This document shows, piece by piece, positions 27,599 to 52,200 of a stretch of DNA of 64,000 nucleotides. The stretch comes from a virus (lineage: Duplodnaviria > Caudoviricetes): the IMG/VR virus record IMGVR_UViG_3300005326_000040, positions 1 to 64,000 of that record; one strand, 5' to 3'. The position numbers and the translations under genes are program-made. The notes below the pieces were generated by a model. It saw only the letters and a program-made list of their open reading frames with translations, was not told where the DNA came from and did no database searches. Every line of letters starts with the position of its first letter. Positions within the stretch are counted from its first letter, which is position 1.

Positions 27599-27674
27599 CA
27601 GGACATAGCTCAATTGGTAGAGCACTCCGTTTGGGGCGGAGAGGTTGGGGGATCATCACCCTTTGTCCTGACCA
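27599..27674 (+). tRNA. tRNA-Pro (anticodon TGG) with CCA; atypical T-loop ATCATCA
   Basis: Acceptor CAGGACA/TGTCCTG + A + CCA; anticodon stem CTCCG/CGGAG with loop TTTGGGG. Confidence 0.85.
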
Positions 27675-27691
27675 ATAGAGAAAAGCAATAG

Positions 27692-27729
27692 GCGCCATAA
27701 GCAAACAAGCTTGTGGCGTTTTTGTTTTT
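27692..27729 (+). terminator. Terminator-like hairpin plus U-tract between tRNA-Pro and tRNA-Asp
   Basis: GCGCCATAAGC-AAACAA-GCTTGTGGCGT followed by TTTTGTTTTT. Confidence 0.5.
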
Positions 27730-27804
27730 GGGACCGTAGCACAATGATAGTGCAGCAGATTGTCGATCTGTATTATGCGAGTTTGAGCCTCGTCGGTCCC
27801 GCCA
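27730..27804 (+). tRNA. tRNA-Asp (anticodon GTC) with CCA; T-loop TTTGAGC
   Basis: Acceptor GGGACCG/CGGTCCC + G + CCA; anticodon stem GCAGA/TCTGT with loop TTGTCGA. Confidence 0.9.
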
Positions 27805-27962
27805 TTGAAAATTTGGGTTGGTAGCTCAGTGGTAGAGCAGCTGATTGTAGAAGGCGTTGAACAGAATAGTGTTGCAACTCGGTTCAAAGCTGGAGCCTTC
27901 GCGGTTAATCAGCCTCGCGCAAGTTCGATCCTTGCCCTTCCCTCCAATTGAAAATTTGGGTT
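27804..27962 (+). repeat. 16-nt direct repeat ATTGAAAATTTGGGTT at 27804-27819 and 27947-27962 (inter-tRNA spacer plus tRNA start)
   Basis: Exact match read from the sequence. Confidence 0.85.
27815..27946 (+). tRNA. tRNA-like gene with 57-nt insertion in the anticodon loop (mature form Tyr-GTA or Asn-GTT)
   Basis: GGGTTGG-TA-GCTC-AGTGGTA-GAGC-A-GCTGA-TTGTA[GAAGGC...GCCTTC]GCGGTTAA-TCAGC-CTCGC-GCAAG-TTCGATC-CTTGC-CCTTCCC-T-CCA; two U-U mismatches in the acceptor stem. Confidence 0.75.
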
Positions 27963-28032
27963 CGTAGCTCAATTGGCTCAGAGCGCTCGGCTCTTAACCG
28001 AGAGGTTGCGGAATCGTTCTCCGCCGGACTCA
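27958..28032 (+). tRNA. tRNA-Lys (anticodon CTT), no CCA; atypical T-loop ATCGTTC
   Basis: Acceptor GGGTTCG/CGGACTC + A; anticodon stem CTCGG/CCGAG with loop CTCTTAA. Confidence 0.85.
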
Positions 28033-28045
28033 CTAAGAAAAACTT

Positions 28046-28120
28046 GGGGCTGAAGCTCAAAGGAATGAGCAGTTGGCATTAAGCCAACATAGGTTGCGAG
28101 TTCGAATCTCGTCGGCTCCG
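28046..28120 (+). tRNA. tRNA-like gene with TTA anticodon (ochre suppressor-like or degenerate)
   Basis: Acceptor GGGGCTG/CGGCTCC + G; D stem GCTC/GAGC; anticodon stem GTTGG/CCAAC with loop CATTAAG; T arm GCGAG-TTCGAAT-CTCGT. Confidence 0.7.
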
Positions 28121-28149
28121 CAAATATCTAGCATGTTATATATTCCCGC

Positions 28150-29007
28150 ATGCAAACAGAATCCGACAGCCAATCATTAAAAGAAGCATTTGAAAAGTTA
28201 AAAGGTTACGCTGAAGTTATTAATGAAAATGATCTCAAAAAGCAAGATCTATTTCAAACTTTATCTCAGAATATTTCTGAAACCAATAAATTTTACGAGC
28301 AAGCTTCTAATTCTATTCGTCGCAGAGTAGATCATGATAGTTTTTTACGAAAAGCGCTGGTTGTTGACCCTTTGCCTCCATTGGCGAAAGCTGAGTATAT
28401 GGCAGAGGAATATAAACGAAAGATAAGTGTTCCGACATTGTATCAACGTTTTTGTGTAAAAAACACAAATGAAGACGCTAGTTTTTATAATAGAGCAGAT
28501 AGATTGGTGCAAAAGGCGATACAGAAAATAATAAAATCTGAGACGCAAATTTTACTCTACTTATTTGCAGTTTGTACAAATAATCGACTCATCATAGATT
28601 GTCGTAATGAATCGCATTCGATCAAAGTTGCTATACAAAAAATGAGAGAAGCTATCTATAATGCTGGTTTGCAATTTGATTTACCTAAAGATCACTCTAT
28701 TGCAATAAGTCATTTTTTCATAAATTTTCTTGATTTTGCCGAGCTAACTAAAGATGTAGCAACAAACAAAGAAAAGCAAGAGTATATGGATTACAACAGG
28801 ATTTGTAATTGTTCTTTTAACGCTAGTCAACTTGTTCCACGGGGAAGAATCTATGGTATTCCTGACCCAGAATATTTAGGAGTTATGCCTATTGTTCAAG
28901 ATATAACTGTTACTAAAATAGATTCAGAATTTATGTTCTTAGAGGGGGCTTATGAACATGGATATGGTATTATTATACCTGAATTTGTTTTTGCAGCCGA
29001 TATTTGA
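28150..29007 (+). CDS. Divergent major capsid protein (HK97-fold) paralogue
   Basis: SNSIRRRVDHDSFLRKALVVDPLP and LVPRGRIYGIPDPEYLGVMPIVQDI match, from memory, conserved N- and C-terminal blocks of a huge-phage MCP family (ANPIRRNLDYQG.ARKALVVDPLP ... ADPEYVGVMPIRQDI). Confidence 0.65.
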   Translation: MQTESDSQSLKEAFEKLKGYAEVINENDLKKQDLFQTLSQNISETNKFYEQASNSIRRRVDHDSFLRKALVVDPLPPLAKAEYMAEEYKRKISVPTLYQRFCVKNTNEDASFYNRADRLVQKAIQKIIKSETQILLYLFAVCTNNRLIIDCRNESHSIKVAIQKMREAIYNAGLQFDLPKDHSIAISHFFINFLDFAELTKDVATNKEKQEYMDYNRICNCSFNASQLVPRGRIYGIPDPEYLGVMPIVQDITVTKIDSEFMFLEGAYEHGYGIIIPEFVFAADI

Positions 29008-30354: not shown

Positions 30355-31686
30355 ATGGACAACAAGTATGTTATGATAAAGTCAGCACCCGCACCATTAT
30401 CAGAAGAGGTTGAAACCAATAAAATTGAAACTGAGCTAACCATTCTATGGGGCGAAAGTGTTCTATTTTCAGGGACAGTCAACAAACCATTTTCTATTGG
30501 TGAAGAAAACTGTAATTTCACTGTGCCTGGAATTAATGTCTTGGTGAAAGATGGCGTTCTTTTTGGACCTCAAGCCATTTCTCTTACAGAAGAATTCTCT
30601 ACTGTTACTTTTGGTGACATTACAATCAAGGCTAGGCTTGTACGGGCTGGAAGAGTTTATCCTACGTCAATACTGTCTGGTTGGTCACATACAGCGTACG
30701 TAGGATTATCTGGGACGATACACGTAGCCTTACTGTTTCTATTTGCTTTCTTTATGCCGCCGCTAGGCATTAGTGATGCTGAAGCTTCTACAAAAGATCA
30801 GCTTTTCCTAATGCAACAATATCTAAACGCTTCGGCTGAAAGAGAACAAGAAGCAAAAGAAGATGCCGAAACAGCCGAGGACTCAAAAGACAATCAAGAA
30901 GGTGGAACAGGACAAAGAGCGGTTGGGGAAGAAGGAACTATGGGTAATCCTAATTCTCCTGCAAGAAACAATAGGTATAGTATTGCTGGGCCAAAAGACA
31001 ATAAAGACATTCATATTTCTAGAGAGGCGGCTTTGAGAGAAGCATCAAGCTTTGGAATGATTGGTATTTTGAATGTGGGAAGCGGAGGAGACCCCAATGC
31101 TCCCACAGCAATTTGGGGACGAGACGAAGCTCTTGGTGCAGATTCTTTTAGCTACCGAGGGAATATGTGGGGAACTGATATTGGAGAATCTTTTGGTTCA
31201 AATGGATTGGGTTTATCAGGAATAGGAGAAAGTGGTGGCGGTAAAGGAGAAGGCATTGGTGTTGGTTCCGTAGGAACAATTGGTCATGGCGCAGGGCTAG
31301 GAGATAAACAAGGCTTTGGAAATGGTCATGGTTTGTTGAAAAGCGGACATAAAGTAAAGGATATTAAGGTTCGCCTTGGAACAACAACGGTTACAGGAAG
31401 ACTTCCACCAGAAGTTGTGCAACGCATTGTTCGTCAAAATTATGGCCGATTCCGCGTGTGCTACGAGTCAGGCTTACGTTCTAATCCAAGCCTTCAAGGA
31501 AGAGTTGCTGTTCGATTTGTAATTGGAAGAGATGGCGGAGTATCAAACGTGGCTAATGGTGGCTCAGACTTGCCGGACCAAAATGTAACCCAATGTGTTA
31601 TTAGAGCTTTTTATGGATTGAGTTTCCCCGAGCCTGAGGGTGGGATCGTTACGGTACTATATCCTATAATTTTTTCACCGAATTGA
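30355..31686 (+). CDS. Myxobacterial AgmX/PglI(GltG)-type TonB-C-terminal domain membrane protein
   Basis: Single TM (GTIHVALLFLFAFFMPPLG), acidic then Gly-rich linker, C-terminal GRLPPEVVQRIVRQNYGRFRVCYESGLRSNPSLQGRVAVRFVIGRDG...CVIRAFYGLSFPEPEGGIVTVLYPIIFSP; RBS AGGAGG. Confidence 0.85.
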   Translation: MDNKYVMIKSAPAPLSEEVETNKIETELTILWGESVLFSGTVNKPFSIGEENCNFTVPGINVLVKDGVLFGPQAISLTEEFSTVTFGDITIKARLVRAGRVYPTSILSGWSHTAYVGLSGTIHVALLFLFAFFMPPLGISDAEASTKDQLFLMQQYLNASAEREQEAKEDAETAEDSKDNQEGGTGQRAVGEEGTMGNPNSPARNNRYSIAGPKDNKDIHISREAALREASSFGMIGILNVGSGGDPNAPTAIWGRDEALGADSFSYRGNMWGTDIGESFGSNGLGLSGIGESGGGKGEGIGVGSVGTIGHGAGLGDKQGFGNGHGLLKSGHKVKDIKVRLGTTTVTGRLPPEVVQRIVRQNYGRFRVCYESGLRSNPSLQGRVAVRFVIGRDGGVSNVANGGSDLPDQNVTQCVIRAFYGLSFPEPEGGIVTVLYPIIFSPN

Positions 31687-31711
31687 TTTATCATTTTTGC
31701 CATATAATAGT

Positions 31712-33289
31712 ATGGCTAAACCAAAAGGTATATTTACCTCTAAATATTCACAATTTAAATATGGCGTCGGTCTTGGTGTTGAACAATTCGTCGTCTCTGA
31801 TTTAGAGTCATTGGTAAGTCTAAATGATAAGGGATTTGCGCCAGATTGGGTCATTCGAGTAACAACTCTTCGTGCAAGTTTTAGATTGGTTTTAGGCAGT
31901 CAGCTTACTGCTGATGGAATTACCGTTATCAATTCAAATTCAGGAAGAGGACAATGGATTCGAGATTTGACTGCGGCTGATACTTATTGGCATAAACAGC
32001 CAGCGTGGTATATTGATGCGGTAAATGGAAATGATGAGAATGCTGGAATAACTCAATCTAGCCCTTTGAAAACTTTTGCTGAGTGGGCAAGAAGAATAGC
32101 AAATGTAGTTAAGACGGCAACGACTGTTAATGTTTTGTCTTCGATTCCTGAGAGCGATCCGTTTCCAAGTTCTCTTTGTTTAGAAAAAAATCTTACAGTT
32201 GCAGGAACTTTAATTGAAACATCTTCTGGAACTTTTACAAGTGTTACTCCGCTTTCAACCGCAACGAATGAAGAGATGAAGGTTGCTAAATCTTCAGGAA
32301 ATTGGACGACTGATGTTGATAAATTGTTATATGATGTAAATGTTGATGCTTGGGGATTTGTTACTAAAGACGTAGGATCTAATAGCGAAGCTTATGTTAC
32401 TCAATTTGCTCCATTAAGTGTTAGTTCTATGGGGAACGCATTAGCTACATTAGCTAACGGCCATGTATATAAACTGTATAACATTCAACACTCTATTTAT
32501 ATGGATAAAACGGTGTCGTGGTACGGCTCAGGAGATTTTATATTTGCTGATTTAATAGTTTATGGTGGAGAATATGTTCCAACGTATAAATATACGCGAT
32601 TTATGGATTGTTCGTGTTCTGTTAATTTTATACGTTGCGCTTTTGAAAGGTCCGCGCCATCAGTTGGAGTTTTCTTTACTATAACAGATTCAAATATTGG
32701 TTTTCATTGCTGTAGAATTGGATCTGTTGAATCGGGCGGAGTAACAGTTCAAACATCAATATGTGGCGGATATATGAATCTAGACGTGGTGTTTTTATCA
32801 GGAACCACAGAAGAAAATTCTTCATTAAATGCCTATGGTTTTGGTGGAGGAGTTAGTATTGCGTATGGAGGACTTACAGCAAGATATTCTTCGATGCGTT
32901 GGTGGGATATGCCTGTTATAGATTTTTACGGTCCGATATGTATGTTCAATTCACCATATCATGGGTTAGAAATTGGAAACTCTGCTGTGCGAATACAGGG
33001 TGGTTACGGTAATTCAGCAGGCAAATTCATAGGAAAAGATATTGCACAATATGGTTTGTATGTGTGGCGAAGCAGAATTACTGGCGCTTCTGCAACTAAT
33101 TGCTATGTGACAGGCACAACTGGCGACATATTGATTGGTGGGAAAACACAACTTATGCCAGAAATTGATGCCTCGGCTGGAGCAGTTCTTCCGGCAGCAG
33201 CACCTTGTACTACTTGGGCACAATTTGCAGCCGCACCGTTCAGCGGCAAACTAATTGATTATACTAGCGCAACCTATTTTGGTCCATAA
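31712..33289 (+). CDS. Tail fibre/spike-like beta-rich protein, paralogue A
   Basis: WYIDAVNGNDENAG...PLKTFAEWARR head motif, Gly/Ser/Thr-rich body; N- and C-termini homologous to 33337-34863. ATG 31712 is in frame with the track start 31697. Confidence 0.6.
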   Translation: MAKPKGIFTSKYSQFKYGVGLGVEQFVVSDLESLVSLNDKGFAPDWVIRVTTLRASFRLVLGSQLTADGITVINSNSGRGQWIRDLTAADTYWHKQPAWYIDAVNGNDENAGITQSSPLKTFAEWARRIANVVKTATTVNVLSSIPESDPFPSSLCLEKNLTVAGTLIETSSGTFTSVTPLSTATNEEMKVAKSSGNWTTDVDKLLYDVNVDAWGFVTKDVGSNSEAYVTQFAPLSVSSMGNALATLANGHVYKLYNIQHSIYMDKTVSWYGSGDFIFADLIVYGGEYVPTYKYTRFMDCSCSVNFIRCAFERSAPSVGVFFTITDSNIGFHCCRIGSVESGGVTVQTSICGGYMNLDVVFLSGTTEENSSLNAYGFGGGVSIAYGGLTARYSSMRWWDMPVIDFYGPICMFNSPYHGLEIGNSAVRIQGGYGNSAGKFIGKDIAQYGLYVWRSRITGASATNCYVTGTTGDILIGGKTQLMPEIDASAGAVLPAAAPCTTWAQFAAAPFSGKLIDYTSATYFGP

Positions 33290-43757: not shown

Positions 43758-44147
43758 ATGTCTCATTATATCTATGAAGTGACAAGTAAAGAACGTAAGC
43801 AATGGGCTTTCGAAGAAATTAGATGTGCTGCCATAGGTTGGTTCAGTCGTTGTAGTTTTTGGAATGAAGCTTGTAAGGATGTTGAAGGGCGCGGCTTTCA
43901 ACCGGAAACATATGAATATTATTTGGAAATTTACAAGCTTTGTATGCTTTGGGAAATGGATGAACAGATATTTCGTTATATGGATTTTGGAACAGACCGC
44001 ACAGATAACGAAGAAAAAATAGAAATAGGAGCAACAAGGAAAGAAAAAGAAGAAATAGGCATTACTGAACCACCTTCTGTAATTGAATCGCCGTATGATG
44101 GTTCTCAGCTTCGTCGGCGGTACTGGAAAAAGGTTACCGAGATTTAG
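43758..44147 (+). CDS. Hypothetical protein
   Basis: ORF track; GATATATAG 11 nt upstream. Confidence 0.6.
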   Translation: MSHYIYEVTSKERKQWAFEEIRCAAIGWFSRCSFWNEACKDVEGRGFQPETYEYYLEIYKLCMLWEMDEQIFRYMDFGTDRTDNEEKIEIGATRKEKEEIGITEPPSVIESPYDGSQLRRRYWKKVTEI

Positions 44148-44158
44148 ATGGCATATAA

Positions 44159-44782
44159 TTGAATCAATATATGGATGCATGTCTTTTTGGTATAACAGGC
44201 GGGATTGCAAGCGGTAAAACAACCGTATGCAAGATGTTGCAGCAAAAAGGTTTACCCATTATTAGTTTGGAAGTTCTTTTATCAAACACTATTCGTCCAG
44301 GTTCCATTTATCATAAGAAGATAATTGATCTATTGGGAGAAGATCTTTTATCTGTAAATGGCACAATTGATTTGCTAAAATTAAGTTTGCGTATGTGTGA
44401 GGCTGGTTGGATAGCTGAAAATGTTAATGATATTCTTGAGGATGGCATCGACGACAGCATAAAGAAAATTCAATTGATTTTAGCTAATACTAAAACTAGT
44501 ATTGCTGGGATTGAAGGAAAAGAAATTTTAGGCTCAAGGATATCTGCTTATATGAAAAAGGTCGTGCTCGTTACCTGTCCTGATAAAATCAGAATTGAAA
44601 GGTTGGTTGAACGAAGCAGCATGAGTCGTGTAACAGCTATAAAAGCCGTCACAAATGATTCATACTTAAATGCTTTTAGGTTTGCAGATTTTTCAATCAA
44701 CAATTCGGCGGGCATCGATGAGCTTTCGAATAATGTAGAGTGTATGTTAGAAAAACTTCTAAACAGTCTTAAACTGGTTTGA
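44159..44782 (+). CDS. Dephospho-CoA kinase (CoaE)-like P-loop kinase, divergent
   Basis: FGITGGIASGKTTV, VTCPDKIRIERLVERS, ADFSINNSAG; the canonical DAD and HP motifs are not conserved. Confidence 0.75.
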   Translation: MNQYMDACLFGITGGIASGKTTVCKMLQQKGLPIISLEVLLSNTIRPGSIYHKKIIDLLGEDLLSVNGTIDLLKLSLRMCEAGWIAENVNDILEDGIDDSIKKIQLILANTKTSIAGIEGKEILGSRISAYMKKVVLVTCPDKIRIERLVERSSMSRVTAIKAVTNDSYLNAFRFADFSINNSAGIDELSNNVECMLEKLLNSLKLV

Positions 44783-44848
44783 GAAACGATATATAAACCG
44801 ATAACAACCAACTAGGCGTTAACATTCAGAAAAAAGGTAAGAACAAAA

Positions 44849-45127
44849 ATGGTACGAAAAGCTGTTAGAACGGATATCAAGGAATTGGTTTTTAGTCGTC
44901 TGGATGCAATCCTGGCAAAGCCCAGGACCAGCGCACATTCACCTCTAGCCTTGGTTGAGGTTGTGTACGCTCTTCTGTTCTGCGTATATGAAGACCGCAG
45001 ATACGAGCGTTATATGAACGAAGAGTATCCGGGCGCCAAGGCTTGGTATTTTGATGAGAGTCTTGACTTCCAGATTGTGACAACGCGGCTACAGAAGTTG
45101 GTAACCAGATTAGCTGAAGAAGACTAA
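44849..45127 (+). CDS. Hypothetical protein
   Basis: ORF track. Confidence 0.55.
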   Translation: MVRKAVRTDIKELVFSRLDAILAKPRTSAHSPLALVEVVYALLFCVYEDRRYERYMNEEYPGAKAWYFDESLDFQIVTTRLQKLVTRLAEED

Positions 45128-45145
45128 AAAGTATTTAAGGTAATT

Positions 45146-45688
45146 ATGCCGGAAAAAAAGAAAAAAGCTGCTTCAACATCGAAGATAAAGAATTGGGAAA
45201 TTAAATTTCCGGTTCCGTTGGTTCTTGATTCTACAATCAGTGACGAATCACTTATTGCTGAGTTAGCGGCTGTGGAAACTGAAACTGAAATTAACAACGT
45301 TTTCAATAACGCAATTGAATTAGCCAAAGACGGTCACGTTGTTACTTGTTCGAAGCCTCGGCTTTTCAAACTCATTGAAGCCGCGCTCGAAGAAGCCGTT
45401 AATGAACCTGGGCTTCTCATCGAAATTCAAGAATGGGAAGATATGTTTCTTATTCTTGTAAAGGATGAGAAAGAGAATGTCATTGGCAGAGGTCAAATTA
45501 CTGAGGTTGGTCAAAAAGTTGACCCCGAAGTTTTCAAGAAAAAGTTTACACAAAATCTTGTTGATTTCAAAAAACGGTTTGATTTTGGTCAACAAAGAAT
45601 GACTAATTTGACATATAAGCTAAAGACGCTCCGAAATGGTATGTTTAATAACATGGCCAGCAAAGGAACACCAGAAATTGTAAATTAA
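45146..45688 (+). CDS. Hypothetical protein
   Basis: ORF track. Confidence 0.65.
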   Translation: MPEKKKKAASTSKIKNWEIKFPVPLVLDSTISDESLIAELAAVETETEINNVFNNAIELAKDGHVVTCSKPRLFKLIEAALEEAVNEPGLLIEIQEWEDMFLILVKDEKENVIGRGQITEVGQKVDPEVFKKKFTQNLVDFKKRFDFGQQRMTNLTYKLKTLRNGMFNNMASKGTPEIVN

Positions 45689-45694
45689 GGACGA

Positions 45695-46150
45695 ATGTCA
45701 TTAGATAAAGAGCTTGCCTCAGATTTTCCTACAGCTGAAGATGATACTTTCAAGGCGGCGTTAGACTCCGTATCTTCAGTCACTTCTGCTATTCTCCAAA
45801 AAAATAATGATTCGTCGCCTGTGGACGATTTCGACGATTGTGACCAAGCACAAATCACTGATTTGTTTTGCAAATGTCTAGCCGATTACCGACGTGTAAT
45901 CAAGGCGTGCATTCGTGACGGCATTGAAGTCGAAAATGATACCCAGGAAATCAAGGAAGAATATGTTACATCCTCCAGTTTTCAAAAAAGGCTAGAAATT
46001 ATTGCGAGTATTCAGGAACAAATCATTTCCATGGCGGAAGCTTGTGATAATCCCCCTCGCGGAGTTGTTAGCAAATATTCAGAAGATCTTGTGTCCCGCA
46101 TTGAAAATGGAATCATTATTGATGATGGATTTGAAGTGTACGACGAATAG
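45695..46150 (+). CDS. Acidic hypothetical protein
   Basis: ORF track; RBS AAGGA. Confidence 0.65.
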   Translation: MSLDKELASDFPTAEDDTFKAALDSVSSVTSAILQKNNDSSPVDDFDDCDQAQITDLFCKCLADYRRVIKACIRDGIEVENDTQEIKEEYVTSSSFQKRLEIIASIQEQIISMAEACDNPPRGVVSKYSEDLVSRIENGIIIDDGFEVYDE

Positions 46151-46221
46151 TGTACACAAGCTAATAATCCAGCATTCCATTAGAATTTTCGCAACCTAAT
46201 ACAGTTAAACACAAAGGCTAT

Positions 46222-49200
46222 ATGGAATTCAACAAATCGGTTGAAAATATTCTTACCGTCGCTCGTTCATACTCAACCCTAGTAAAAATTGCTTCCGAAC
46301 AAAGTCGGCAGGTTTTTAGTGTTGTTGATTCTATTTTGGATATTCCATATGACGCAGCTGCCAGGATTCATTCTAGACTTAGTTCCTTCGCACAATATGG
46401 CGGCGGGAATCGTTTGTATGGTATTTTGGATACGGTCCCTCCTACAGGCGCAGAGCTTCTTCCTATGGAAGACCAGCCTTTCACGGTTATAGATTCTTTC
46501 GCTAAGAAACATCCAATTACACATGAAGAGGGTGATGACCGCTTCAAGCTAGTGCTATATGACGATGGGATTCAATATCCTATGGTTTTGGTTAGTTCCA
46601 GTGAAGGAACCGAGATTCGATATCTTGACACTTCGTTCTTTGATCTTGAAGACTTTTATGAGAAAACAAAGAAGAAAGCAGAAGAAGATTTACCAGCAGC
46701 AATAGCCCAAATCAATAGGGAGCGAAAAGAAAGAAATGAAGATCCTGATAGGCCGAAGAATCAGCCTCCAGAGATGCCTATTACTACAGATGAAGAAAAA
46801 CAAGAAGTATTCGATGAAGTACATGCCGCTTTAATTTCGGACAAAGTTGTTGGAAACATGTCTTCAGATTTTGATGCGCCCAATGGTTCGCTTGGACAAG
46901 TGAGCGCAGAGGCTGTCGGCAAACTTCGTGCCGTCATGCCTGAAGGCGAATCAAATGTTACCAAGATTGATTATGCTAGATATTTTAAGTATCCAGAAGA
47001 CGCTAACGTTTTCGCTCAGATTATGGCTATCAAAGACGTAACGAAGCGTCTTGCTGAGGCGGAACAATTCCTACAGAAAGTAGGAATGGTGGAAACAGAA
47101 GAAGAATTGACACTTGCTCCAGCTTGGAAGTTTGTAGAGCTTTACAACATCATCAATCCAAATTCTCCGTATTATTGGTTGGAGCGCGCTCGGTCATATG
47201 CAGAACGCGCAACAAAAGTTTGCACCCTTTACAATAAGATTTATACGTCTCTTATAGTCAATCCGCTTCGTGTTAAATTGGTTGACGCACAAAAAGTGGA
47301 CGGCAAAATTGTAAGCGCAAATGTTCTTATTAGCGACGAAAAACTTGCTTTAATCGAACGCGCTTTGCCCTCAGCTGAGGAAGACCTTGAAACCAAGATG
47401 TTTACGTATGTTCCAGATACGGAGCATAGCTATACATCTACTGTTGAATCCCCAATTCTTGCCAAAGAAGTTCGTAAGCTGAAGTCTTCTATTTACTTTA
47501 CAAAAGCTATGTTAAGTGAAGTTCACTCTGAAAAACCAGATAAATATGCTATTGCAAAGGTTGAAGGCGGCTGGAAGATTAATTCTGATATGACTCAATA
47601 TATTGAGCACATTTTCACCTATGCAGACGTAGATTTTAATTTGACGTTTGAAGCAATTGTAAAGGATCAAGGAGATTCTTTTTGGAAGATGTTTGATGAG
47701 TATGTAACAACATATGAATCTCTTATGAACGACGCTATTGCTGATGGCGTTAAGGTAAACGTCACAAATCGTGATAAGCTTTACACCAAACGCGGCCACG
47801 AACAATTAGATAAAGAAAAAGCCGCTTATGATCAGTTTGGCCGCCTGCTACAAAAGCAACATATAGTAAGAAGAGATGATAAAGCTTGGGATTTTCCATC
47901 AAATGATGAAGTTAATCCTGAAATTGTTTTGGATAGCAATGAAATCCAAAGTGAAATTGAGCCTGCACAAACTAGTCAAAAAGTAAAGCTTCTTTCCAGA
48001 GCGCTTTTAGAAAAGATTTTTATTGGGTTTGGCGACTCTGATGAATCTCGAAAAAGCTTGGAGGATATTGGGGAAGCCATTGATAACGCAAAGGTTTTTT
48101 CTTCTGACGTTAGTATGGATATAACGGTTGGAAAGCTTAACGTTGTTACCAAGAACATGCACAAGATTCTTCGGGAATATTCTGTCAATCGTTTGCGTGA
48201 AATTTTTATTGACCCAGAAGCTAACAAAGATGAAGTTGAGCGAATCAGTGCTATTACCGAATCTGGCAAAGATATGGCTGGTTTCTTCCTAGGGAAAGAC
48301 ACAGTCAAAAACGTTCTTGCGCTTGAAAGCAAAGTTGATTCTCTGGAAAATAAAAAGCAAGAGATTGAAACATATGACCCGGAAGCTCAGCAGCAGGAAA
48401 ATCAAGAAAAACTTGTAAAGGTTCAAGGGGAAATAGCTAAGTTAGACGCTGAGCTTGAGGCTGACAGTAAAGCTCATATGCTGTCTAATGAAGAAAAGAT
48501 GGCGATTAAAAAGAGGACTCAGTATTTGAAGAGCGTGGTGAAAAAACTAAACTCTGCACCAAGTCTTCCTACAATAAAGGATGTTGAAAATCAGCTTGTT
48601 TCTGCCCAGAAGAAGCTGGATGATTATTTGAGCGCTGTTGAAGCAGAGATTCCAAGTAAAATTGCAACGCATGTTTACTTCCAATTGAAAGAAAAGGTAA
48701 TGGAGTTGGGTTACCTTACTACATGGAGTGATACTGTTCGGCGTGAAACTAGACAGAAGATTGTTGAGGCTATTTCTGAGATTTTTGCAAAACAACCGGA
48801 GCTAGCAAAACAAATCGTTAGAGAATGTTTGGACAACAAAACTCACGGATATAAGTTCAGCGAAGCTAAGGTTAATAAGTTTTTCATTGAGCCGCTGAAA
48901 GCAAAATATCCAAACTTGAAGAAAGCTTGGAGCGGACAAATCAGCGAAGAAGACCAAGAACTGTATCGTCAGAACCAAGAGGTTTTAGGTAAGATTATAT
49001 TCATGACTGATGTTTCTGGACAAGAAGATACTGATGACACAGATGATCTTGGTAACGCTTTGTCTCCTGCCCAGCTTACAGAAGAAATGACGCAAGAATT
49101 GGTTGCAAATACAGCCCAAAATCTTCATGCGTTCGATTCTATTCTCATCAATTACATTAGATATTTCGCTAAGGGCCAGAAATATAATCAAGCCATTACA

Positions 49201-52200
49201 ACGCTTCATAACTCTAAAGCAAACTTCCGTAACCCACAAGAGTTTTTGGAGCAATATGAAGCTATAACTGAAAACTTCGTTATTTATGTAGCCAGCGCCA
49301 TTGAAAGAAACTTACGGCAGTCTACTGAGTTCAATGAGCGAATCAAGGAACAGTCGCCAAGAATTTGGGCTTACATGTATCCTGATAAGCAGGCGCAAGA
49401 AGAAGAGCCAGAACTTCCAGACGAGATGAAGGAAATGTATCTTGTCGAAAAAGAAAACAATCAAAAGAAAGTCTGGTCTTATATTCGAACCCGAATTGAA
49501 GAGCTTGTAGCTATCTACAATCAAACACTTGAAGGCTACGATGATGAAGATTTTACTTCTGCTAATCCAGCAAGAGATTTGGTTAAAAGGCTTTCAGTAC
49601 TAAAAGTCAGGCCAAAAGCTATTCGTAGTATCGTATCCAAGCTTCGTAATAACCAGCGTTTACCAGAGTCTAAGGTTATCGATGTAATTTCAGAAGCGCT
49701 GTCTTCTCAAAATGCTCAACCTGAAGTTGAAAGTAATTTAGAGCTTTCTCGAAACATTTTCACCGCCATGGTGGAAACTAGGTCTATGCTTGCGGACAGT
49801 AGCGGCAGGTATAGCTTAACAATTACGGATAACGATATCATCAATCCTGATGCACCAGCAAATTTCGCAGCAGATAAGGTTCTAAAAGGAACAGGCACAA
49901 CAGAAGGTATGTTGCTTAATATCCTTGAGCCAATTACAGCTGTTGACCCAGAGTTACTAAAACGCACTGTTCATACAATAGGTCGCGCTAGAACTATCAG
50001 CCGACCAATGGATAATACTCAGGAAAAACTTATCAACTCTATCATCGAGGAATTTGTCAAGTTTGATAAGCAGCTGTCAAATTATAGAAGCGCGGCTATC
50101 TATAAGCTTTACAAAGAACGAGAGGACGTAGAAGCACAAAAAGGACAGCATGTCTTTACCCCTGAAGAGATAAAGGGGGAAGTGTTGAAGATGATAGCAG
50201 ACAATGGTTCAACTTCTATTCTGTCTTCGCTTTTGCCGAATGCTGGAAGCAACTCTTTGAAAGATATTATGGCAGCGTATGCTGGAGAAAGATTGGATTT
50301 AATTAGCCGATTTGAAGAGCATGCTAACTTCATGTTCTCTAAGAGGAAGCGTGAGATTAAAGACGAAGAAGGAAACGTTGTTTCAGTAGAAGACGTTGAG
50401 CCTACTTTCCCTCTTACAGATAGATTTGCATTGGTGCCTACAGAAGGTATCATCGATAAGATTTATCAAGTAATCCCTGATAAAGAAGGGTTAATTGAAA
50501 ACGGCATGACGGATATTCAAATTAAGAAGATGATCAAGCGTAAACTTGAACTCCTTAACTTGAGTAACCGGTTGATTGAGCGAGATGAATCTGGGAAGTA
50601 TAAGGATACTGAGTATACCACTCCTCCCAAATATTCCAATCCTGGGCTTAAAGACCCACAGTATTTCGAGCATATTTCTAGACCATATATGATTAAGCAG
50701 AAAGAAAATATGGCTAGATTGGATACCTTGTTTGCTAGCGAAGAAAAGATTAACTGCTCAATGATGGTAAATATCTTTTACCATTTGGAAGCTAAATACA
50801 TTTGCCCAATGGGCAGGAAGCTAGCTGACAACAACGCAAACGACGAAGCTGTAGTAAACGCTGCAAATAAATTGTTTGCGCATCCGTCAGTTCGTGTGTA
50901 CCAAAAATCAATTGGCGAAAGTGCGTTACAAGCGTATATCGTCAAGAGACTTGAGGCAATTAGAAATGGCGAAAGTCATTCAACCGAATTTGTTGTTAAT
51001 AACATTACGTTGGTTGACGCCGTTGTTGATTCTTCAATTCGCTTGGTAGCAAGCATTCGTGAAAACGAAAAACAAAAGCGCGCACAAAAGGGAACGCAAG
51101 ATTTCGCAGAATATGAAGCTAATGCGCGTGAGGTTGCTGATACTTCTTTTGATGACCATGACATTGATAGGGCAGAAGACGCCTTGAATGAACAGCAAAG
51201 CATCATTGAGCAGAATCAGAGAATCATGGATCAGCCCGTGGACCCAGCAGCCATAAAGGATATGGTTGTATACCTGATTAGCTCTCGCACAAATCAGAGT
51301 TTGAATTTTGCAGCCAGAAGTTTTCTTGAAGAAAAGAAGCTGCAAGATAAGGTGGAGTCTGCTAAGATTTTCAAGACTCTACCAATTGTATTCGACAATA
51401 AGGTTTCTTATATTGATGTTGAAGCTCCTCCTGACCCAACCAAACCAGACGCCAAGAAAAGGATAATTAAGGAACCAGTATATGATAGCCCTCTATATGG
51501 AACGAAGGGTAGTCCAATCGTTATTAGATTGGCTGTCAAGCAGCTTGTTGTTGGGGGCGAAGATAAAGGTACACCTAAGGGCGTTCCCCTAGAGTATTTG
51601 AACTACTTCAACAACGCAAGCAATGCTAACGTCAATTCTTGGCAGGATATTCAATCGCAACAAGAAGAAAAACCAAATGACGTTCAACAAGGGTTGCTTG
51701 AAAAATATAATCCCAAAGGAATTCAACGGCTAAAGCAGCTTTCTAATATGATTGGCCGACAAATCTGGGGAACATTAAATCGTAACGATTACTTCTATGT
51801 TCGGTTAGTTCCATTTGAATATGGAGGCAAAGTGCCTAGCCTAGAAGGACCAGACGTGCAGGATTTAGAGCAGTCTGCTCCTGATGATATCGTATTGTAT
51901 ATGAAGGCTTACGTTCAAGATGCTCTTTCAGCTTTTACCAGAAATGGTAAGGTTTATATGGATGCGGTTCTTACTGGAACGCAGCTAGCACAAGTGAAAG
52001 CTGCTTTCAAGAAAGCGGCATCGATGGAGACAATGTTCTTATCCACCGAACGAAAGAGACGCATGTTGATGGAAGTTCAACAGGAAGCTGGTCAAAAGCT
52101 AGTGCAGGAAGAAAACGAAAAGGCTGCGCTCAAAGAAGAAGACGAGAAGCTTCTACAGCAGGCACAAGAGCAATTCATTGGCTGGTATCATATGGAATTG

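Follow-up and report, generated by a model that had tools for sequence, protein, structure and literature searches.

The first 64 kb of the IMG/VR record IMGVR_UViG_3300005326_000040, hereafter the window, belong to a groundwater phage of jumbo size (338 kb; the whole record, here termed G000, comprises 338,055 bp and is estimated to be about 97% complete). On the plus strand, at positions 27815-27946, the window contains a tRNA gene whose anticodon loop is interrupted by 57 nucleotides. From sequence comparison we read it, with moderate confidence, as a gene for tRNA-Asn(GUU) carrying a non-self-splicing intron of 57 nucleotides, a mini-intron that would be spliced by proteins. Protein-dependent splicing of the family to which the intron belongs appears probable, and we lean towards a functional state for the present copy, the most worn member of that family.

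An earlier reading made from the sequence alone (the sequence-only reading) had described a tRNA with 57 extra nucleotides in the anticodon loop, and two programs bear this out. The Rfam tRNA model RF00005 matches positions 27815-27943 over its full length with 42.6 bits, compared to a gathering score of 29, and its alignment treats about 60 bases in the anticodon loop as an insertion. ARAGORN misses the gene in a default run and reports a tRNA-Asn(gtt) with a 57-base intron when introns are allowed. The encoded CCA end, the short variable loop and two U·U pairs in the acceptor stem are likewise present as described, as are the letters TT-GTA on the 5′ side and GTT-AA on the 3′ side of the insert. 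Since three other assemblies (ENA, JGI and Logan) contain the surrounding tRNA cluster with 100% identity, the insert is not an assembly error.

IMG/VR contains 393 relatives of the G000 major capsid protein with 75-85% identity, and contigs of 340-450 kb encode several of them. ARAGORN with introns allowed, applied to the tRNA-rich regions and later to the whole genomes of such capsid relatives, revealed inserts of 50 or 51 bases and of the same build in two jumbo phages, G001 (435 kb) and G002 (448 kb), whose major capsid proteins are 77% identical to that of G000. A covariance model built from the present sequence alone (R1) ranks these two inserts first, with 20.5 and 19.0 bits versus 11 bits for the next match; these matches appear only with filters switched off and nothing is found with default filters. 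All 15 modelled pairs, located in the anticodon stem, in the acceptor-like stem P1 and in the T-like stem of the insert, are standard in both matches and in the present copy. Model R2, run over 57 related records, recovered G001 and G002 only, two further weak matches being false. A pattern drawn from the three sequences led to two further members in IMG/VR and to three metagenome contigs, and the design is thus represented by eight distinct members: the present copy, G001, G002, two IMG/VR contigs and three metagenome contigs. This pattern fixed YTGTRG, the T-loop, a 12-nt distance and TAA, and never P1, the tRNA context or the acceptor marks. In the alignment of the eight sequences 117 of 120 cells (97.5%) hold standard pairs and 11 of the 15 pairs change on both sides. 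This level of pairing was reached by none of 500 shuffles, and slid registers gave 19-49%. In P1, five of six pairs covary and 95.8% of the cells are paired; the pairs of the T-like stem are kept in 96.9% of the cells, and the T-arm-like hairpin is present in all three members that were found without the T-loop pattern. Of the two helices drawn in the sequence-only reading, GAAGGC/GCCTTC (27850-27855 with 27895-27900) is real and covaries, five of its six pairs having changed on both sides in relatives. TTGAAC/GTTCAA can be drawn but lies outside the minimum-energy fold and has no counterpart in the relatives, where GTTCAA forms the loop of the conserved T-arm-like hairpin (here 27879-27893).

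Outside this set the design was not encountered. A TTGT version of the pattern produced 12 matches and the tightened pattern, applied to 185,579 bacterial and archaeal genomes, produced seven, none of them real; in the stems of the 19 false pattern matches no more than four of six positions are paired. Exact and gapped DNA patterns taken from the present copy retrieved only the neighbouring tRNAs from IMG/VR, BLAST of the tRNA with its insert against 23 related records gave D-arm matches only, and the INPHARED phage collection gave generic tRNA matches only. The flanking capsid protein paralogue of 285 amino acids and the Dda-like helicase, when used as bait, led to no syntenic relatives. There is no paralogue of the insert elsewhere in G000 and no neighbour gene common to all eight loci. 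As far as these searches reach, the family appears to be restricted to phage or phage-like contigs.

All eight members follow one plan. Exon 1 ends in Y-U-G-U and exon 2 starts with U-A-A, and between them lies an intron of 48-57 nucleotides that consists, in this order, of a purine, the 5′ strand of the 6-bp stem P1, a linker of 14-23 nucleotides, a 4-bp hairpin with a seven-nucleotide UUCRANN loop, one nucleotide, the 3′ strand of P1, a purine and four more bases. The first purine is G in seven members and A here, the purine after P1 is A in seven members and G here. In the relatives the linker measures 14-16 nucleotides and has no common sequence or fold, and the tail reads A followed by AAGA, AGAA, AGAG or AGGT. 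The single nucleotide between T-like stem and P1 (A27894 in the present copy) reproduces the spacing in tRNA, where the acceptor strand 66-72 likewise follows the T stem. The first purine-purine layer and P1 together take the place of a 7-bp acceptor stem. The layers add up to 1 + 6 + 1 + 4 = 12, as many as the acceptor and T stems of a tRNA contain together, although two of these stacked layers, the purine-purine layer and a mostly unpaired one, are not of the Watson-Crick type. The predicted pairing makes the intron a scaled-down tRNA top half in which the D and anticodon arms are replaced by a disposable linker.

The identity of the interrupted tRNA follows from comparison. The excision arithmetic of the sequence-only reading is correct: removal of 27849-27905 leads to the anticodon GUU, removal of 27850-27906 or 27851-27907 to GUA. 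When the excised block is slid along the sequence, the present copy gives GUU for three positions, or GUA, G001 gives GAU, GAU, GUU and GUG, and G002 gives AAU, GAU, GUU and GUG. The cut between positions 35 and 36 is the only one that produces a single anticodon in all eight members, namely GUU for asparagine in the loop YU-GUU-AA; in the present copy alone, cuts at 33/34 or 34/35 yield the same product. E. coli tRNA-Asn has U1-A72 and G73. The same marks, mostly together with CCA, are found in six of the eight members as well as in the plain tRNA-Asn genes of two further relatives used for comparison, G003 and G005; the exceptions are the present copy and G001, both with G1-C72 and U73 (27943 here). 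The predicted spliced forms align best with plain phage tRNA-Asn, the one from G002 sharing 63 identical positions and an identical anticodon arm with the plain tRNA-Asn of contig L155. A genome-wide tRNA survey of G000, G001 and G002 detected His-GUG (with G-1 and C73), class-II Tyr-GUA and Ile-GAU in each, and nowhere a plain Asn-GUU. G003 and G005 possess plain Asn-GUU and lack the insert, and on four smaller contigs the interrupted gene stands beside a plain tRNA-Asn as its paralogue. Because three independent lines, the acceptor marks, the tRNA repertoires and the neighbouring paralogues, agree with the common GUU, we assign the host tRNA as Asn(GUU) and place the predicted intron at 27849-27905, between U35 and U36. 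The labels His, Ile and Thr that ARAGORN attaches to the relatives are phase errors. An assignment as Tyr-GUA on the assumption that P1 begins right after position 36 was dropped on the grounds of tRNA repertoires and acceptor marks.

If the intron is removed, the mimic of the tRNA top half would be what protein enzymes grip in order to cut at its base, the two tRNA halves would be kept together after excision by the acceptor, D and T arms, and a phage ATP-dependent RNA ligase would reseal the nick in the anticodon loop. ATP-dependent ligases of the Rnl type, for example T4 Rnl1, seal nicks with 3′-OH and 5′-phosphate ends in the anticodon loop. Two versions can be envisaged. In version (a) host RNase P would cut 5′ of the mimic and a second endonuclease would cut after the tail, which would leave a 3′-OH and a 5′-phosphate directly joinable by an Rnl-type ligase. 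In version (b) an endoribonuclease would leave a 2′,3′-cyclic phosphate and a 5′-OH, and phage phosphoesterase, cRec and kinase functions would heal these ends prior to ligation, as is the case for T4 Pnkp plus Rnl1. For the 5′ cut we slightly favour version (a). The predicted RNase P bond is located at the base of the 12-layer stack and has U at position -1 in all eight members and G at position +1 in seven (A here); the UUCRANN T-loop is present in all eight, being imposed by the search pattern for five of them. The co-occurring phosphoesterase and cRec genes are a hint at healing according to version (b). Cutting by RNase III combined with a ligase was considered and abandoned once the T-arm design emerged. 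The family may represent a third kind of phage tRNA intron besides ribozymes and those with a bulge-helix-bulge, excised by host end-processing enzymes, RNase P on the 5′ side and an endonuclease on the 3′ side, with the tRNA halves rejoined by a phage ATP-dependent ligase, such that tRNA-Asn matures only in the presence of the phage ligase; we regard this as a tentative proposal, possible rather than probable.

The sequence-only reading had suggested a phage route of nuclease plus ligase, and this suggestion stands in part. G000 encodes RNA-repair proteins (ligases, a Thg1-like protein, phosphoesterases and a cRec protein), but EndA (PF01974) is absent from G000 and the proposed RtcB-like ligase (PF01139) is absent from G000 to G005, both searches having responded in control genomes; the ligases present are ATP-dependent. 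One of them, with 350 amino acids (G000 151250-152302), matches Naegleria Rnl5 (PDB 5cot, E=1e-62) and TIGR02306, and is of the Naegleria/Deinococcus Rnl5 type. Its gene lies between the Thg1-like gene, 1.6 kb upstream of it, and a metallophosphoesterase gene, about 2.3 kb downstream. The second, with 261 amino acids (G000 198623-199408), contains the PF09414 domain only. G000 further carries phosphoesterase genes (one at 170187-170732), a gene for a cRec domain protein (109603-110052) and a kinase-like open reading frame (140103-140462). PF09511 was not found in G000, though its control search was silent as well, and no RNase Z-like gene is present in G000. In a co-occurrence screen of all G000 open reading frames against complete genomes, 75 had homologues in both G001 and G002, and five of these were without homologue in G003 or G005: those for the short ligase, a phosphoesterase (phrog_547), the cRec protein, a papain-like peptidase and a protein of 576 amino acids. 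The short PF09414 ligase is also encoded on the intron-bearing contig L155 and is absent from G003, G004 and G005. A role of cRec in processing ends that bear a cyclic phosphate, so that RNA ligases can act on them, has been proposed (Iyer et al. 2021, PMC7824862). As a specific partner of the intron, cRec was a candidate that is weakened by a cRec gene in the intron-less G003. In G002, a loose RNA-repair island at 44056-51017 (L341 4056-11017) comprises genes for two phosphoesterases, one of them a metallophosphoesterase, and for an Rnl5-type ligase, Hsp20, a subtilase and a cRec domain protein.

A number of points weigh against splicing as proposed here. Splicing itself is a prediction from sequence, and a look for RNA data sets that contain this stretch turned up none. 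The mimic lacks an NCCA 3′ end, its tails being CGGT, AAGA, AGAA, AGAG or AGGT, and we know of no enzyme that cuts exactly five nucleotides past a stem without a preceding CCA. From RNase Z one would expect a cut directly behind the first unpaired base, four bases earlier, which would leave a loop of ten nucleotides. The mimic of the acceptor stem consists of six true pairs plus the purine-purine layer, the layer between P1 and the T-like stem is paired in only two of eight members, and the Rfam tRNA model finds no match within the 57-nt intron. With five of the eight members found by pattern, only the present copy, G001 and G002 are independent with regard to the features that the pattern fixed. 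The present copy is moreover the most deviant of the eight, with two U·U pairs, G1-C72 and U73, A·G in place of G·A, two G·U pairs in the T-like stem and the odd tail GCGGT. As to the repair enzymes, the short ligase also occurs in G007, a relative that is only 47% complete and in which no intron was seen, and it is a divergent cRec that the intron-less G003 carries. In the capsid tree the three intron-bearing phages lie on one side of a split with a support of 0.83; the co-occurrence of intron and ligase therefore amounts to roughly one evolutionary event and is a lead, not proof.

Other explanations of the insert differ in how it would be removed, or in which tRNA would result. A gene of switchable identity, from which alternative excision would produce either tRNA-Tyr(GUA) or tRNA-Asn(GUU), was conceived because GTA and GTT are both formed in the present copy by a one-base shift of the excised 57 nucleotides. 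In the seven relatives, however, the second reading is GUG, GAU or AAU and never GUA; the body of the split gene is class I, whereas the tRNA-Tyr(GUA) that G000 already possesses is class II with A73, and G001 and G002 carry proper tRNA-His. We consider two alternative anticodons hardly credible and the tyrosine reading of the present copy a one-base coincidence. Hardly more credible is an intron of the archaeal or eukaryal type, with a bulge-helix-bulge as the site of cleavage by an EndA-like endonuclease and RtcB as the ligase. It is true that size (48-57 nt) and location in the anticodon loop recall archaeal introns. Yet the site is 35/36 and not 37/38, both enzymes are missing from the phage as stated above, and, in agreement with the sequence-only reading, no canonical bulge-helix-bulge, with its two 3-nt bulges that carry the splice sites on either side of a 4-bp helix, can be drawn. 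The splice junction folds as an internal loop of 1-2 x 4-5 nucleotides that separates the anticodon helix from P1. In most members a short helix can form from U33-G34-U35 and the last tail base with U36-A37, and the 3′ splice site then lies within this helix. The sequence-only reading had set the short element apart from self-splicing group I and group II introns and expected it to need a nuclease and a ligase, and size and Rfam results support this. Rfam reports nothing in the 57 nucleotides even at E<=10, while the same library detects a true group I intron of G000 in tRNA-Leu(CAA) (RF00028, 53.9 bits versus a threshold of 50). Group I introns need a catalytic core, P3-P9, of about 200 nucleotides or more and end in G. 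A group I intron was accordingly rejected for an insert of 57 nucleotides without core or RF00028 match that ends in U here and in A, G or U in the relatives. A novel, very small self-splicing or self-cleaving ribozyme would share with group I introns the U preceding the 5′ splice site, but conservation is limited to two plain helices plus a T-loop and does not extend to the linker, no Rfam ribozyme matches at E<=10 and the last base is not a fixed G. We regard it as very improbable. A scan of the whole G000 genome revealed tRNAs and the one group I intron only, and neither RNase P RNA nor small self-cleaving ribozymes; the same phage thus holds one tRNA intron of the self-splicing type and one mini-intron.

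More weight attaches to two alternatives that concern function. The present copy could be a dying or dead gene, with splicing perhaps continuing in other phages and host tRNA-Asn serving this one. Its many deviations fit such a view, among them U4·U69 (27818·27939), U5·U68 (27819·27938) and a C·A layer besides those listed above, and so does the lowest Rfam score in the cluster apart from the suppressor-type tRNA. Regarding the acceptor stem, GGGAAGG would pair perfectly with the 3′ strand CCTTCCC. Because the stretch 27804-27819 is repeated exactly at 27947-27962, the U·U mismatches are probably a by-product of a 5′ module shared with tRNA-Lys. Against decay speak the 15 modelled pairs, all of them still standard, the intact loop (U33, G34 U35 / U36, A37 A38) and CCA end, and intact tertiary-pair positions (U8, A14, G18 G19, G15-C48 and G53-C61). 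The lack of the bacterial tRNA-Asn marks U1-A72 and G73 is an old and tolerated change, since the sister phage G001 shares G1-C72 and U73 while its acceptor stem is perfect, and the gene is the only candidate for Asn-GUU in G000. A dead gene seems unlikely to us. Quite unlikely, in our view, is an insert that is never removed and makes the transcript a tRNA-shaped decoy or regulator, or a mini-tRNA that is itself the real product, the surrounding tRNA being a carrier cut by RNase P in the manner of mascRNA or t-elements. The insert is built in a way that would suit its release by enzymes of tRNA end processing, no known enzyme fits the 3′ cut, and ligation is predicted only. But U33 G34 U35 / U36 A37 A38 is kept in three independent members and rebuilds the loop of plain phage tRNA-Asn, the Asn acceptor marks, relevant only to charging, are kept in six of eight, the linker of the supposed mini-tRNA varies in sequence, length and fold, which would be odd for a functional product, and G000, G001 and G002 are without any other tRNA-Asn. 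The unspliced decoy for which the sequence-only reading had left room is disfavoured by the preserved split loop and acceptor marks, and a protein-spliced tRNA-Asn remains the reading that we prefer.

Textbooks treat tRNA introns of bacteria and phages as self-splicing and reserve protein-dependent tRNA splicing for archaea and eukaryotes; to our knowledge, protein-based removal of a tRNA intron has not yet been shown in bacteria or their viruses. The group I introns of phage and bacterial tRNAs resemble the mini-intron in that they split a bacterial-type tRNA within its anticodon loop and have a U before the 5′ splice site, and differ by their core of at least about 200 nucleotides and the terminal G. 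With archaeal and eukaryal tRNA introns the mini-intron would share shortness, dependence on proteins and the need for a ligase, and the fungal and plant heal-and-seal set (cyclic phosphodiesterase, kinase and ATP-dependent ligase) resembles the repair genes of G000, but bulge-helix-bulge, EndA and RtcB are missing, the site is 35/36 and a T-loop minihelix would be the recognition element. RNase P and RNase Z cut tRNA-like signals in mascRNA (MALAT1), in the t-elements of plant mitochondria and in mitochondrial tRNA punctuation. In these systems a tRNA-shaped module within a longer RNA directs the cuts at its own ends, as is proposed here, but their flanks are not rejoined, whereas here the flanks are tRNA halves that would need ligation and the mimic has no CCA or discriminator-type end. 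T4 Pnkp and Rnl1 reseal tRNA-Lys cut by PrrC. The likeness would lie in a phage ATP-dependent ligase that seals a break in the anticodon loop while the tRNA body holds the halves; the difference is that T4 mends damage and removes no intron, and that the ligases of G000 are of the Rnl5 type and the short PF09414 type, not Rnl1.

The nearest published case are the "enigmatic" tRNA introns of Lak megaphages, which have no Rfam match and one of which "may encode a tRNA" (Devoto et al. 2019, Nat Microbiol, PMC6784885). Like the insert studied here, they are short, non-group-I inserts in the anticodon loop of tRNAs of huge phages (PMC6784885, Fig. 4 and Table S6). By our reading, each intron in Table S6 ends in a 7-bp acceptor-like stem with a GTTCGA-type T arm and a tail of 2-3 nucleotides, just as the mini-intron has P1, the T-like hairpin and a 5-nt tail at its 3′ splice site; the two were compared by design and not by sequence homology. 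The Lak introns differ in length (79-114 nt) and in their position after nucleotide 37 of Tyr, Phe, Thr and Gly tRNAs, and their tRNA-like unit is preceded by an additional 5′ hairpin and a spacer rich in A. With these two elements in front of the unit, an RNase P cut would fall off the 5′ splice site there. In the present family the mimic fills the whole intron of 48-57 nucleotides from its first base, has no D or anticodon arm and interrupts tRNA-Asn at 35/36. Our literature search turned up no account of how such introns are handled mechanistically, those of Lak phages included. New here are the resolution of the anticodon question, the 35/36 boundary, the layer count, the closing layer of two purines, the family's absence from the scanned cellular genomes and the ligase co-occurrence screen.

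Should the proposal prove true, it would establish a new tRNA splicing route in bacterial viruses and would assign a concrete job to jumbo-phage RNA ligases beyond the mending of tRNA damage inflicted by the host. Gene annotation is affected as well, as standard bacterial tRNA finders miss such genes and intron-aware ones misassign the anticodon (His, Ile or Thr for Asn). With a substrate of only 132 nucleotides and exact predicted cut sites, the proposal is directly testable. The features of the locus and of related tRNA genes are compiled in Table 1.

Table 1. Features of the split tRNA-Asn gene, its tRNA cluster and further phage tRNA genes. Positions are those of the window unless a genome or contig is named.
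Feature	Position	Strand	Basis	Remarks
tRNA cluster containing the split gene	27599-28121	+	ARAGORN, Rfam, terminator scan	
tRNA-Pro-UGG	27599-27674	+	ARAGORN, Rfam	
Terminator-like hairpin	27690-27729	+	terminator scan	13 pairs and T run, between tRNA-Pro and tRNA-Asp
tRNA-Asp-GUC	27730-27804	+	ARAGORN, Rfam	
Leader-plus-acceptor module, 16 nt	27804-27819	+	exact repeat at 27947-27962, before tRNA-Lys	ends GGGTT
tRNA-Asn with predicted intron	27815-27946	+	ARAGORN with introns allowed, Rfam	
Exon 1	27815-27848	+	Rfam alignment, ARAGORN -i, family comparison	includes D arm
Acceptor 5′ strand	27815-27821	+		
Anticodon stem 5′ strand	27840-27844	+		
U32 U33	27845-27846	+		
G34 U35	27847-27848	+		end of exon 1
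Predicted intron, 57 nt	27849-27905	+	comparison with seven relatives, structural alignments	boundaries at 35/36
Purine-purine layer	A27849 facing G27901	+	alignment	G·A in seven relatives
P1 5′ strand GAAGGC	27850-27855	+	covariation	acceptor-like stem
Variable linker	27856-27878	+	minimum-energy folds, alignment	23-nt hairpin here (GTTGAACA / TGTT-g-CAAC)
T-arm-like hairpin	27879-27893	+		stem TCGG/CTGG (two G·U), loop TTCAAAG (UUCRANN)
P1 3′ strand GCCTTC	27895-27900	+		one nucleotide (A27894) after T-like stem
Single-stranded tail GCGGT, 5 nt	27901-27905	+		before 3′ splice site
Exon 2	27906-27946	+	sequence, Rfam, ARAGORN	includes variable loop and T arm
U36 A37 A38	27906-27908	+		start of exon 2
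Anticodon stem 3′ strand	27909-27913	+		
Acceptor 3′ strand	27936-27942	+		
U73	27943	+		
CCA	27944-27946	+		
tRNA-Lys-CUU	27958-28033	+	ARAGORN, Rfam	
Suppressor-type tRNA, anticodon UUA	28046-28121	+	ARAGORN, Rfam (41.5 bits)	
tRNA-Leu(CAA) with 294-nt group I intron	G000 161425-161802 (L143 926-1303)		Rfam RF00028	outside the window
Long-variable-arm tRNA-Asn	L117 5232-5368			G002
Long-variable-arm tRNA-Asn	L155 9456-9592			
Long-variable-arm tRNA-Asn	L238 1880-2014			
Long-variable-arm tRNA-Asn	L105 6842-6929			G005

A long variable arm reminiscent of class II, unusual for tRNA-Asn, occurs in several tRNA-Asn genes of phages, both intron-bearing and intron-less ones. ARAGORN reports three further phage tRNA genes with inserts that do not show the T-arm design: a tRNA-Met with a 25-nt insert in G005 (31672-31774; L105 16673-16775), a tRNA-Glu with a 25-nt insert in G001 (68005-68118) near the cRec gene of that phage, and a tRNA-like gene of 137 nucleotides with an ill-defined insert in G002 (110552-110688; L117 3553-3689). 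HNH genes adjoin two of the eight intron-bearing tRNA-Asn loci (L155 9578-9961, minus strand; L238 1323-1697, plus strand). They are free-standing, belong to phrog_2255 (E about 1e-25 to 1e-29) and their products are 63% identical to each other; their position next to the intron-bearing tRNA-Asn may reflect a homing link.

The 16-nt repeat in the cluster of G000 spans the leader and acceptor bases 1-5 of tRNA-Asn and tRNA-Lys, and the likeness continues through the D arm, which suggests duplication or conversion of tRNA 5′ halves. The last tRNA of the cluster (28046-28121) has the anticodon TTA and would decode the stop codon UAA, which may point to stop-codon read-through or recoding in G000. 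Directly 3′ of the cluster, at 28150-29007 on the plus strand, lies the gene for the major capsid protein paralogue. It is far from the true capsid gene (G000 324370-325383) and its product matches phrog_2522 over residues 216-263 only. The nearest relatives of the Dda-like helicase of the window are encoded on the contigs L012 (9131-9868), L011 and L014, which are rich in RNA-repair genes (Thg1, RlaP, 2H-SAK and cRec), and some homologues of this helicase with 39-42% identity carry a Patescibacteria annotation.

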